From positions 24,430,001 to 24,494,000 of the forward strand of contig NC_058368.1 in the NCBI RefSeq assembly GCF_018350175.1: a stretch of 64,000 nucleotides of DNA, in the 5' to 3' direction. The number at the start of each line of letters is the position of its first letter. The first letter of the stretch is position 1. The translations under genes and the position numbers were made by a program. Under the pieces are notes generated by a model. That model saw only the letters and a list, made by a program, of their open reading frames with translations. It searched no databases and was not told the origin of the DNA. Shown here piece by piece: positions 44,714 through 48,399 of the stretch. This DNA comes from Felis catus (taxonomy: Eukaryota).

Positions 44714-44913
44714 TTTTTTTTAATGTTTATTTTTGACAGAGAGAGAGACAGAGCGGGGAGGGGCAGAGAGAGAGGGAGACACAGAATCCGAAGCAGGCTC
44801 CAGGCTCTGAGCTGTCAGCACAGAGCCCGACGCGGGGCTTGAACCCACAGACCGCGAGATCATGACCTGAGCCGAAGTCGGACGCTCAACCGACTGAGCC
44901 ACCCAGGCGCCCC
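44714..44913 (-). mobile_element. CAN-SINE
   Basis: TSD tgatttttacctttttt. Confidence 0.94.
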
Positions 44914-46685
44914 TGATTTTTACCTTTTTAAAAGAATTACCCTTTAACGGGTGATTAGTTTCCACTATAGGGATGTGGCGTTGCAACGTTAAAATTTCAG
45001 TGCAGACAATTTAAAGACTCAGTTGCTTCAGACTTCTGGTCAAGGTCATTCTTTTTTTTCATTATGTAATATAGAGCTCTCAGAACCTCTGAAAAAATCC
45101 TCTCACCCCCTCCAAAAAAATTCCATCCTATAAAGGAGTTAGGGAAAAGAAAAAAAATCTTATGAACAAATGTCTTAAAAAATTAACAATTGTTTGAACA
45201 CCGGTGATGACATATATATTGCTTGTACTTTGCAGTAATTTTTTCTCAAAAGAGATTGCACATTTTATTTGATAGGTAATAAAAAAAGTAAAGTTTTTTT
45301 TTTTTAAGTACTAAATGAGAAAATAAGTCAGTTTGGATGGCACCTCTGTGTAACACACTTTATGCTTTAGTGTTTCCTGGGCCTTTCTGTCTTCTACTTG
45401 TATTTCATTTTTTCCTTCAATACATGGAGTCCATACAGATTACCTGGGCTCTGAATATAACAACATGAAGGGACATACTTTTTAACCTCGTCCTTTTTTA
45501 GGCATGAGGTCAGTTCTTAAAGGAGTCAGTGGGTGATAAAAATTCTTCTAAATTAGTGTTTACAAACTGGTGTTCTGGAAAGCACTGTTCTGGGAGATGC
45601 TAAACGGTAGGTCTCACAAAAAAAGAGGGAGGGGAAGAGTTCTGTGTTGCTTGGAGACATATAGTGCAGATCAGCACAATACATGGGCTTTGGGCTGTTT
45701 TGTTTGTTTGTTTAAGTATACCTATATCTGGCAGAACACTTTTCCATAGAATATACTTTGGGAAAACAATGTTTTATTTATTCCTTAATTGATCCAATGG
45801 CATCACTGAGGTTAGAAATAAGTAACTGCTTTTCAACCCCCTATGGAGTCTGGCGAGTAAGTTTCCTCCAGATGTATTATTCTCTATTCATGAACAGATG
45901 AATTAATCACTGAAAGGGGTCAATTTTCTTATGTTATTTTCACATTCCTTTCTGCTATGGCTTTCCAGCTGCCAAGAGGGGTATCAGAAAAACACTGCCT
46001 GATTTCATAAGGTTAATGTGGATATGCTTAGATTAATAGATAACAGTTCCACATGATCCAACTCTGAAAGTGACCCAGATCTTCTGGCTATTTTCTTACC
46101 ATTCACAGAGATTATCTCATTCCACCTGTCGTGACAGTCCATCTGGTCCAGAGAGTATGAAGGTGTTCCAAGAAATGGCAGGAGGTGAAAAAACAATGCC
46201 TCACAGAATAAACTCTGTCACCTAAACATTCCATCCCTTGAATGCTTCCAGATAAAGAACCACAGAATATGTGTTTATTCTTGACTTAACTTATCTTCCC
46301 TGGAGAAGTCTATTTATGATTATTACGCATGCTGAAATTCTTGGCTGCATTACTTTACCAAGATCGCCCCTCCCTGAGCTCTCACAGCACAGGTATTCTT
46401 TTCAGAAGTAGGGTAATACTTTTACATCATATTCTACAGTCTATTTTTTTTTACTTTTGAAAATGAAGCAATGCCTTTAGATTTGAATTGGGAAGCTGAG
46501 AAAACCAAGACTGTCTTTTTCCTCAAAAGCAACTCTTGTAAAAAAATTTTTTATTTGTCCTGTTACTATCATTGTTACTAACAAGCAAATAAGAACAGCA
46601 AGGAAACCAAAGCGAAGCCCTGGACTGGCCCTCACACCTCCAGACTGCAGTCAAAACCCACTCACCTTTAAAAAGCCCTAATTCC

Positions 46686-46890
46686 TTGTTTGGAGGTTCT
46701 AGCAGGGGAACACAGCTACTCACATACTCTTGACCAAAGAACAGTCCTCCTCTATCGGAGAAGGTTGTCCTCTTTGATCCAGTGTGCAGCTTTGGGAGGG
46801 ACGCACATGGAGCGGTGAGGAAGGAAGGGGACACCCGCCTAGCCAGCCAGATCAGCCGAATCAATGCTGGCGATCAACAGGGTGACAGAT
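46686..46890 (-). pseudogene. RN7SK: 7SK snRNA retrocopy fragment (about nt 27-231), inverted 5' part of a 7SK/L1 chimeric insertion
   Basis: Reverse complement reads ATCTGTCACCCTGTTGATCGCCAGCATTGATTCGGCTGATCTGGCTGGCTAGGCGGGTGTCCCC...GATAGAGGAGGAC...CTGCTAGAACCTCCAAACAA. It is colinear and ungapped with recalled human 7SK (about 22 mismatches in 205 nt by hand) and lacks both 7SK ends. Confidence 0.95.
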
Positions 46891-47892
46891 TTGCAAATGC
46901 CATAAAGGATAAAGGGTTAGTATCCAAAATCTATAAAGAACTTACCAAACTCAACACCCAAAAAACAAATAATCTAGTGAAGAAATGGGCAGAAGACATG
47001 AATAGACACTTTTCCAAAGAAGACATCCAGATGGCCAACAGACACATGACAAGATGCTCAACGTCACTCATCATCAGAGAAATACAAATCAAAGCCACAC
47101 TGAGACACCACCTCACACTGGTCAGAGTGGCTAAAATGAACAAATCAGGAAACTACAGGTGCTGGCGAGGATGCAGAGAAATGGGAACCTTCTTGCACTG
47201 TTGGTGGGAATGCAAACTGGTGCAGCCGCTCTGGAAAACATGTGGAGGTTCCTCAAAAAGTTAAAAATAGAACTATCCTATGACCCAGCAATAGCACTAC
47301 TAGGAATTTACCCAAGAGATACAGGAGTGCTGATGCATAGAGGCACATGTACCCCAATGTTTATAGTAGCACTTTCAACAATAGCTAAATTAAGGGAAGA
47401 GCCTAAATGTCCATCAATTGATGAATGGATAAAGAAGATGTGGTTTATGTATACAATGGAATACTACTTGGCGATAAGAAAGAATGAAATCCTGCCATTT
47501 GTAGCAATGTGGATGGAACTGGAAGGTATTAAGCTGAGTGAAATAAGTCAGGCAGAGAAAGAAAGACATATATTTTCACTCATATGTGGATCTTGAGAAA
47601 CTTAACAGAAGACCATGGGGAAAGGGAAGGGGAAAAATAGTTACAAACAGAGACAGAGGAAGGCAAACCATAAGAGACTCTTAAATACAGAGAACAAACT
47701 GAAGGTGGATGGGGGTGCAGTGGGGGAGAGGGGGGAAATGGGTGATGGGCATTGAGGAGAGCACTTGTTGGGATGAGCACTGGGTGTTGTATGTAAGCAA
47801 TGAATCATGGGAATCTACACCAAAAACCAAGAGCACACTTTACACACTGTATGTTAGCCAATTTGACAATAAATTATATTAAAAAAAAAAAA
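46889..47892 (+). mobile_element. 5'-truncated felid-type LINE-1 (ORF2 C-terminus, 3' UTR, poly-A)
   Basis: ORF2 C-terminal peptides ([18 protein letters not shown] ... [27 protein letters not shown]), AATAAA and A-tail; TSD aaaaagccctaattcc at 46670-46685 and 47888-47903 encloses both this L1 and the 7SK piece. Confidence 0.95.
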
Positions 47893-48399
47893 GCCCTAAT
47901 TCCATCTGACCCTCATGTTAAGACAGCAGGGAAGAAGGTATGGATGATGCTAACTGGGCAGAATCCAACAAAGAAAGGACTGAAGATTAAGAAGTCAAAT
48001 TCTCGCACACTCCAATTTAATGAGGCAAAGGCTTCAAGACTTGTTCTCATCTAATTTTATAATAAAATGACTTAACTCATAGAAATTCGGTATCAAGTCA
48101 AAGTTCGTTTTTAGCCAACCAACAAAGTATACTATTACAAGGGTAAGAGAGGGCATCACATCTCACTAAGAAGCCACAATACAGAGTTCTTTCACTACAC
48201 ATTCCAGTCACTGAGACTCTTTTCCATTAAGGATCCCACAATACTACAGTTTTTTCCTGCTTTCAAAGTAGTCCTGTCCTTCCACTCTCAATATGTTTAA
48301 ACACTTTTTTTTATTTGAAAACTACCCCAAATTTAAGAAGTGAGAAAGAATGAAAGAGCTAAGTTAACCAATAGGGAGTACCCAAAGTAGGCAGAAATA

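Follow-up and report, generated by a model that had tools for sequence, protein, structure and literature searches.

Composition of the insertion

The window, a 64,000-nucleotide stretch of the genome of Felis catus, contains a retro-insertion in which a fragment of the 7SK RNA lies antisense to the 3' end of a LINE-1 (L1) element, the two parts being enclosed by one target-site duplication (TSD). The duplication is a 16-nt direct repeat, AAAAAGCCCTAATTCC, whose 5' copy (46670 to 46685, plus strand) and 3' partner (47888 to 47903, plus strand) are 100% identical, and a repeated 16-mer occurred in none of 500 shuffled versions of the interval from 46400 to 48200. Apart from this pair, at the outer borders of the insert, no exact repeat of at least 12 nt was found at the locus; none of that length brackets the 7SK part alone or the L1 part alone. 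One TSD spans both parts, and neither possesses one of its own. The left edge of the 5' copy marks the site of the first-strand nick, which reads ...CCTTT/AAAAAG... on the top strand and provides a motif of the L1-endonuclease type (TTT/AAAAA) that is visible in the L1 orientation only, the 7SK orientation being without such a site. A second cut, in the top strand and 16 nt downstream of the first nick, accounts for the length of the TSD. Both the 16-bp duplication and the L1-endonuclease nick had been proposed in an initial annotation made from the letters of the sequence, and both are borne out here. The flanks to the left and to the right are each single-copy in the 2.43-Gb genome, and a paralogous empty site is therefore absent.

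Adjoining the 5' TSD copy is the 7SK fragment (46685 to 46890, minus strand). The initial annotation had suggested searching this piece against Rfam, and the search returned a minus-strand match to the 7SK family (RF00100) that scores 138.9 bits (E = 1e-37), the gathering threshold being 35, and that was recovered by a scan of the whole window. In an ungapped alignment nt 27 to 232 of the genome's own 7SK gene pair with window positions 46890 down to 46685 (206 nt), with 20 mismatches in the 206 positions, 10 of them at CpG positions. The limits given earlier, from about nt 231 back to nt 27 (205 nt), are correct to within the shared junction bases, because the gene alignment spans nt 27 to 232. 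The 3'-most base of the fragment (nt 232) adjoins the 5' TSD and the 5'-most base (nt 27) adjoins the L1. According to the Rfam consensus the apical loop comprises nt 233 to 245, so that nt 232 is the neighbouring last paired base of the stem and formally not part of the loop. As had been remarked beforehand, the fragment carries neither a tail nor a TSD of its own; promoter, the 5' 26 nt and the 3' 99 nt are likewise missing. A 7SK gene would comprise 331 nt with stem-loops 1 to 4, preceded by a pol III promoter and closed by a terminating T-run; the fragment, although it scores above the cut-off, is no such gene, nt 27 to 232 alone aligning confidently. The intact 7SK gene resides elsewhere (locus L022, G000:C13:50327887-50328217).

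The remainder of the insert is a 5'-truncated L1 of about 1 kb in the sense orientation, which begins at about codon 1040 of ORF2 and ends in a poly(A) adjoining the 3' TSD copy. The C-terminal remnant of ORF2 (46890 to 47596, plus strand) corresponds to approximately residues 1040 to 1275 of human ORF2p, contains one frameshift near 47234 to 47241 and terminates at the natural stop (47594 to 47596). Two open reading frames lie over the L1 part (46734 to 47264 and 47135 to 47596). A Pfam scan of the two frames returned no family, and the identity of the L1 was taken from solved structures of human LINE-1 ORF2p, which the translated frames match over residues 1040 to 1156 (E 3.3e-51) and 1155 to 1274 (E 2.8e-39). 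The remnant is followed by the 3' UTR (47597 to 47880, plus strand) with an AATAAA signal at 47868 to 47873, and by a run of 12 A read from the sequence (47881 to 47892, plus strand); the tail proper amounts to 7 to 12 A, because the last five A also open the 3' TSD copy. The ORF2p matches, the AATAAA and the A-run agree with the earlier description of this part as about 1 kb of sense L1 3' end with poly(A). Positions 46891 to 47880 align end-to-end with other genomic L1 copies at 87 to 91% identity, and L1 is abundant in the genome, with 20,446 first-look candidates, the best 40 of which were scored and show 87 to 100% identity.

At the internal junction the two parts overlap by the dinucleotide AT (46889 to 46890), which could have come from either the 7SK or the L1 cDNA: for most copies the match to L1 starts at 46889, and the match to 7SK runs as far as 46890. 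In nine other L1 copies the sequence at this point reads ...AGAT followed by ATTTGCAAAT. A microhomology of four nucleotides (AGAT) was considered and rejected; since pairing through AGAT predicts one more AT than is present, the overlap of 2 nt was retained. At the left junction base 46685 is common to the TSD and to 7SK, and complementarity between the top-strand primer and 7SK is confined to one base. The AT microhomology and the single shared base on the left had both been recognised in the initial annotation. Two queries spanning the 7SK/L1 junction were run over the 2.43-Gb genome, the best 40 candidates per query being scored, a depth at which a diverged source copy could escape. For each query one of the 40 scored matches covers both sides and is the window itself; no second place spanning the junction was found among these matches.

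The two parts are about equally diverged. Outside CpG positions the 7SK part shows 10 mismatches in 174 positions (5.7%), and the divergence of the L1 on its terminal branch is 5.4%, so that the ages of the two are concordant; a similar divergence may also arise from two events close in time. At a neutral rate near 2e-9 per site per year, a non-CpG divergence of about 5.5% would make the insertion some tens of millions of years old, and it is predicted to occur in all felids and perhaps in other feliforms. Judged by its sequence, the insert is an old, decayed passenger (about 5 to 6% diverged) in single-copy DNA, and nothing seen points to a function.

7SK copies elsewhere in the genome

7SK is a frequent L1 passenger in this genome. 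A motif corresponding to 7SK nt 81 to 103 occurs with at most two mismatches at 136 places, and among the best 20 Rfam hits 19 are retrocopies of full length that carry A-rich tails, the remaining hit being the gene. There is no indication of a variant master copy behind the young retrocopies, each of which departs from the gene at a position of its own. We surveyed 84 distinct other motif-bearing copies, with 17 listed and 36 unlisted places lying outside the sample; flanking sequence extended to only about 200 nt for 20 loci, and the comparison set for L1 consisted of approximately the 3' 2.5 kb of L1 together with unrelated flank repeats. A scan for further inverted 7SK/L1 chimeras, which the initial annotation had called for, identified none among these 84 copies. 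Most of them (78 of 84) start at nt 1 to 5 of 7SK. Six copies start later by BLAST, and L054, L078 and L090 keep the 7SK 5' end in their flank. L005 is a 7SK copy nested inside an L1 and equipped with its own TSD; at L088 and L103 no abutting L1 match was found.

The 3' ends of the surveyed copies bear on the breakpoint of the chimera. Of the 84, 24 end at nt 232 to 249, 20 of these within the Rfam-consensus loop (233 to 245). An A-tail is lacking in at least 18 of the 24, and for most of these tailless copies TSDs were located at the edges. Extension to nt 1 to 3 of 7SK was found in 22 of the 24 solo copies. The nt 232 to 249 region is thus a known entry point for the reverse transcription of 7SK in this genome.

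A probable single L1 event on two RNA templates

We consider it likely, on the strength of the sequence features described above, that a single L1 retrotransposition produced the insertion by twin priming in trans, each end of the staggered target break being extended on an RNA of its own. Reverse transcription would have been primed on the poly(A) of the L1 by the T-run of the bottom strand, and the free 3' end of the top strand, having one base in common with its template, would have primed on a separate 7SK RNA in the vicinity of the L1 machinery. Synthesis on 7SK would have started where the apical loop of stem-loop 3 opens on its 5' side and extended almost to the 7SK 5' end. Finally, the 3' ends of both cDNAs would have paired via AT, their flaps would have been trimmed and the gaps filled. 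A single event with the second primer on a different RNA, either free 7SK or part of a 7SK-L1 fusion RNA, had already been suggested in the initial annotation, and the one TSD, the orientation of the nick and the tailless state of the 7SK part lend support to it, as does the contact of the 3'-most 7SK base with the 5' TSD copy, which is what priming by the top-strand 3' end on 7SK RNA would be expected to leave.

The question remains as to how far the same structure could have come about by other routes. In the first of these, 7SK cDNA or DNA made elsewhere was captured by end joining while an ordinary 5'-truncated L1 insertion was being resolved, and became linked on one side to the 5' TSD and on the other to the L1 cDNA, with no top-strand priming involved. 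Captured filler would likewise sit within a single TSD, and the minimal homology at the junctions (1 nt and 2 nt) is as in end joining; however, captured pieces should be random in their orientation and in their ends, whereas the TSD-side end of the fragment falls on the hotspot of the at least 18 tailless 7SK retrocopies, and the three antisense chimeras entered in a human catalogue end at nt 235 to 238 in the same orientation (PMC13174262). On balance we regard capture as improbable.

Alternatively, the chimera could have existed as RNA prior to insertion, either as the transcript of a source locus with antisense 7SK upstream of an L1 3' end or as a ligated 7SK-L1 fusion RNA that underwent classical twin priming. 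RNA ligation of U6 to L1 is presented in the human catalogue as an accepted route to sense chimeras (PMC13174262), and a 5'-truncated read-through retrocopy would also show a single TSD. Such an origin is nevertheless very improbable in our view: the window is the only junction-spanning place among the best 40 scored matches per query, and random 5' truncation is not expected to occur precisely at the 7SK priming hotspot. As to the second template, free 7SK is favoured over a 7SK-L1 fusion RNA, because priming at nt 232 of a fusion template ought to have left 3' sequence of 7SK, from nt 233 on and in sense orientation, at the 5' end of the L1, where none is present.

The odds are longer still for separate insertion of the two parts, a 7SK retrocopy and an L1 having come to abut by chance. 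Both types of element are abundant (136 7SK-motif places and more than 20,000 first-look L1 candidates) and the 7SK copy nested within an L1 at L005 sets a precedent, yet the second TSD that would be expected between the parts or around one of them is absent, though L005 has its own; moreover, the 7SK piece is tailless, the site in the 7SK orientation is not of the endonuclease type and both parts are equally diverged. An error of the assembly, from which the junctions are read, that joined a copy of 7SK with one of L1 can be given hardly any credence, for such an artefact would not leave unique flanking sequence duplicated exactly over 16 nt at the two outer borders, and 20 sequencing runs from 12 studies (24 runs were found, all from one organism) each hold 0.87 to 0.89 of the words sampled over the whole 4.2-kb stretch, a figure that is not specific to the junction.

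Returning to one L1 event with 7SK as the second template, a further-reaching proposition would be that the apical loop of stem-loop 3 of 7SK serves in mammals as a conserved and preferred entry site for reverse transcription by L1 ORF2p, used from the first nick in tailless retrocopies and from the second in inverted chimeras. We put this forward tentatively and think it rather doubtful. It draws on the four known antisense 7SK/L1 chimeras, in which the 7SK cDNA starts at nt 232 to 238 and is trimmed to nt 10 to 27, in contrast to the solo copies with ends at nt 232 to 249, of which 22 of 24 extend to nt 1 to 3. HEXIM1, a partner of the 7SK snRNP, binds the endonuclease domain of ORF2p in the yeast two-hybrid system. 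If loop entry were true, the 7SK snRNP would be physically present at sites of L1 integration, and second-strand synthesis could be primed on a bystander RNA, with a characteristic trimming where the cDNAs are joined.

Relation to known chimeras

By its layout the insertion fits the class of inverted small-RNA/L1 insertions attributed to twin priming, a kind already described in human. It would constitute a clean instance in which a foreign RNA served as template for L1 second-strand priming, with an exact TSD, a canonical nick, single-copy flanks and defined junctions; otherwise it is an ordinary decayed retro-insertion that adds one more data point to an existing class. The initial annotation had stopped short of calling it unprecedented, and aptly so in view of the U5, U1, U2 and U6 cases (PMC4476161) and of the three human 7SK cases entered in the catalogue (PMC13174262). 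Classical twin priming shares with it the two target-primed cDNAs, the one staggered break, the join at a microhomology and the inverted 5' part inside a single TSD; the difference is that both primers are classically extended on the same L1 RNA, whereas in the present insertion the second template would have been an unrelated RNA. Twin priming in trans has been proposed for inverted U5, U1, U2 and one U6/L1 chimeras (Doucet et al. 2015, PMC4476161). As that article describes them, these resemble the present insertion in having a 3'-truncated small RNA inverse to a 5'-truncated L1 within a single enclosing TSD, an endonuclease consensus in the L1 orientation only, internal initiation, and short complementarity between small RNA and target. 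Initiation in those cases lies in or at a single-stranded loop; in the present one it lies at nt 232, the stem base next to the loop in which most of the solo tailless copies end. The cases concerned are spliceosomal snRNAs, and 7SK is not among the seven presented in the article's account (PMC4476161).

Two further classes are similar in part. Chimeras of the U6/L1 type, which are products of template switching or of RNA ligation, also combine a small nuclear RNA with a 5'-truncated L1 in one TSD; in the catalogue's description, however, their small RNA is sense and usually full length (PMC13174262), whereas the present 7SK lies antisense and lacks both of its ends, and the U6/L1 mechanism therefore does not fit here. 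In that type the 3' end of the small RNA adjoins the L1 truncation; in the present insertion it is the 5'-proximal end of 7SK (nt 27) that does so. Tailless 7SK retropseudogenes (Noll et al. 2015, PMC5322556; Kojima 2010, PMC2912911) display, as these articles portray them, the same internal start on 7SK, in their case at a single-stranded region, and the same lack of poly(A) on the 7SK part. They are solo copies arising at the bottom-strand (first) nick, each with its own TSD (PMC5322556, PMC2912911), whereas the 7SK of the chimera would belong to the second nick, lies within the TSD of the L1 and stops at nt 27. A solo tailless retropseudogene was also considered as an identity for the fragment and rejected: no repeat flanks 46685 to 46890 alone, and the right-hand neighbour is the L1.

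The closest relatives are three antisense 7SK/L1 chimeras entered in a catalogue of the human genome (PMC13174262, Cell Genomics 2026, Table S3 '7SK'), which comprise 7SK nt 15 to 238, 10 to 235 and 12 to 238. The catalogue is confined to the human genome, and twin priming is its general explanation for antisense-oriented chimeras (PMC13174262). In its entries the geometry is that of the present insertion, with the low-numbered end of 7SK at the L1 truncation and nt 235 to 238 facing the upstream flank; the L1 pieces are 5'-truncated, about 0.5 to 2.5 kb long and belong to families L1PA7, L1MA3 and L1PA7 (PMC13174262). Host lineage and L1 family differ, and the human cases and the cat insertion are therefore independent. 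A non-primate case whose 7SK breakpoints are nearly those of the human entries suggests that they reflect 7SK structure and proximity to the L1 machinery, and not chance. Compared with the three human entries, the cat 7SK piece (27 to 232) is slightly shorter at both ends, and its TSD is longer and cleaner, at 16 nt with TTT/AAAAA; the human TSDs measure 7 to 9 nt, and one of the three entries is credited with an endonuclease motif (PMC13174262). Over the four known antisense 7SK/L1 chimeras, i.e. the three human entries as catalogued and the present one, the 7SK cDNA begins at nt 232 to 238 and is trimmed to nt 10 to 27.

Structure of the composite element

An exact 16-nt direct repeat, AAAAAGCCCTAATTCC, occupies positions 46670-46685 and again 47888-47903, and its two copies enclose an antisense fragment of 7SK RNA (46685-46890) followed by the sense 3' end of an L1 element (46889-47892). 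The pair was read directly in 46500-48100 and was the only exact repeat of at least 12 nt that a repeat scan recovered within 46400-48200; none of 500 shuffles of that interval contained a repeated 16-mer. On the top strand TTT lies directly to the left of the 5' copy, which places the first-strand nick at TTT/AAAAA, a site of the L1 endonuclease type that is visible only in the reading direction of the L1 part. The sequences flanking the insert on either side (46250-46683 and 47904-48340) are each present in a single copy in the 2.43-Gb genome. The target-site duplication (TSD) around both parts and the type of target site thus stand as the initial annotation had described them.

The 7SK part matches the Rfam 7SK family (RF00100) on the minus strand with 138.9 bits (E 1e-37; gathering score 35), and a scan of the whole window returned the identical match. 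As a reference we used the genome's own 7SK gene (locus L022, G000:C13:50327887-50328217), a 331-nt sequence preceded at about 25 nt by a TATA-like element and followed by a T-run terminator, with neither poly(A) nor TSD, which is likely to be the functional 7SK gene of this genome. The alignment to it is ungapped, gene nt 27 falling on window position 46890 and nt 232 on 46685, so that the first 26 and the last 99 nt of the gene are missing; the fragment carries no promoter, terminator or A-tail. Eighteen of the 20 mismatches over 206 nt are transitions, and they are divided between 32 CpG positions (10 mismatches) and 174 other positions (10 mismatches, 5.7%). Elsewhere in the window, a tRNA-like Rfam match at 44824-44908 on the minus strand (31.2 bits against a cut-off of 29, E 0.014) could be the head of a SINE derived from a tRNA rather than a tRNA gene.

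Similarity to other genomic L1 copies starts at 46889 and extends end to end to 47880, with 87-91% identity among the best 40 scored of 20,446 first-look candidates. Two open frames match the solved structure of human LINE-1 ORF2p, the first over residues 1040-1156 (E 3.3e-51) and the second over residues 1155-1274 (E 2.8e-39); a Pfam scan of both frames returned no families. The natural ORF2 stop (47594-47596), the AATAAA of the 3' UTR (47868-47873) and a run of 12 A's (47881-47892), the last five of which double as the start of the 3' TSD copy, follow in order on the plus strand. A single frameshift near 47234-47241 interrupts the ORF2 remnant; the last ~236 codons are otherwise open across the two frames, though ~5% diverged.

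At the left junction one base (46685) is shared, fitting the TSD and 7SK nt 232 alike. At the internal junction the AT at 46889-46890 belongs equally to 7SK (nt 28-27) or to L1, and since nine other L1 copies read ...AGAT and then ATTTGCAAAT at this point, the overlap amounts to 2 nt. Both overlaps are those noted at the outset.

A probable single retroinsertion

The repeat scan of 46400-48200 revealed no TSD belonging to the 7SK part alone or to the L1 part alone. When the genome was queried with two junction-spanning sequences, only the window itself, one of the best 40 scored matches in each case, covered both sides of the junction; the remaining matches end at the 7SK side or begin at the L1 side, and among them we therefore found no source element and no second composite copy. 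The ages of the two parts agree: the terminal branch of the L1, estimated by pairwise comparison with 11 further copies and no consensus built, is 5.4% (SD 0.9%, 55 pairs) as against 5.7% for the non-CpG positions of 7SK. One TSD, no TSD private to either part and concordant divergence support the earlier proposal of one retroinsertion in which the second primer copied another RNA. Of the 24 sequencing runs located, all from a single organism, 20 (12 studies) contain a share of 0.87-0.89 of the words sampled from the 4.2-kb stretch. This shows that the stretch is present in that species, but the share spans the whole of it and does not confirm the junctions.

A fusion RNA of 7SK and L1 primed at nt 232 would be expected to place sense 7SK, beginning at nt 233, in front of the L1, and none is present. 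The layout is what twin priming predicts, provided that a different RNA served as template for the second primer. The T-run of the bottom strand would have primed on the L1 poly(A), whilst the 3' end of the top strand, 16 nt downstream, would have primed on 7SK nt 232 and been extended toward the 7SK 5' end, leaving 7SK in antisense immediately next to the 5' TSD copy; the 3' ends of the two cDNAs would then have been joined at the AT overlap. The composite structure and its TSD are read from the sequence, and we infer from them the order of the steps and that the 7SK RNA was free.

7SK retrocopies across the genome

With at most two mismatches allowed, a motif spanning 7SK nt 81-103 was located at 136 places, and a reversed-pattern control at none on the forward and one on the reverse strand. 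The survey covers 84 distinct 7SK copies besides the one in the window; a further 17 listed and 36 unlisted places with the motif lie outside the sample. The 3' end falls at nt 321-331 in 47 of the 84, 43 of them with an A-rich tail, and at nt 232-249 in 24 (29%, among loci L057-L111). Within the latter group 20 end inside the apical loop of stem-loop 3 of the Rfam consensus (positions 233-245), 22 begin at nt 1-3 and at least 18 are without an A-tail, most of these having TSDs at the copy edges. With its start at nt 232, the chimera lies at the margin of the principal hotspot of internal priming on 7SK in this genome.

No further inverted 7SK/L1 chimera was present among these 84. One copy, locus L005 (region of G000:C18:12753899-12754103), is a tailless copy of nt 12-241 that is 99.1% identical to the gene and sits within an L1; a TSD of its own, AAAGCGCCCAA, identifies it as a nested insertion, which shows the contrast between sequential insertion and a chimera.

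The best 20 Rfam 7SK matches comprise the gene and 19 full-length copies with A-rich tails. Eight copies (L021 and L023-L029, for instance G000:C46:29826282-29826612) share at least 99.1% identity with the gene, seven with clean TSDs and all with different private mismatches, and one young full-length retrocopy bears a pure A-tail of ~50 nt. Such copies point to recent, possibly ongoing, L1-driven retroposition of 7SK in this lineage.

Comparison with known chimeras

7SK RNA, HEXIM1, MEPCE and CCNT1 have been recovered with L1 RNPs, and in yeast two-hybrid assays the endonuclease domain of ORF2p gave its strongest hit with HEXIM1 (Goodier et al. 2013, PMC3753637). Tailless 7SK retrocopies have been described (Kojima 2010, PMC2912911), and a human study counts 139 tailless 7SK retropseudogenes whose truncation points lie in single-stranded regions (Noll et al. 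2015, PMC5322556); the tailless copies ending at nt 232-249 are of this kind. Seven inverted U5, U1, U2 and U6/L1 chimeras are also on record (Doucet et al. 2015, PMC4476161). A 2026 study, 'Comparative genomics reveals LINE-1 recombination with diverse RNAs' (PMC13174262), records in its Table S3 four 7SK/L1 chimeras from human, three of them antisense and covering 7SK nt 15-238, 10-235 and 12-238; it ascribes antisense chimeras to twin priming and treats the human genome only. The three share the geometry of the window's chimera. We found no description of a 7SK/L1 twin-priming chimera in a carnivore in the open-access literature searched. The observation is confirmed, and the chimera is a non-primate addition to a class already described, so its interest is modest.

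One point worth carrying forward is the breakpoints of antisense 7SK/L1 chimeras: by the spans in that table, the four known (three human and the present one) all start at nt 232-238 and run no further than nt 10-27, whereas the solo copies ending at nt 232-249 in this genome mostly reach the 5' end.
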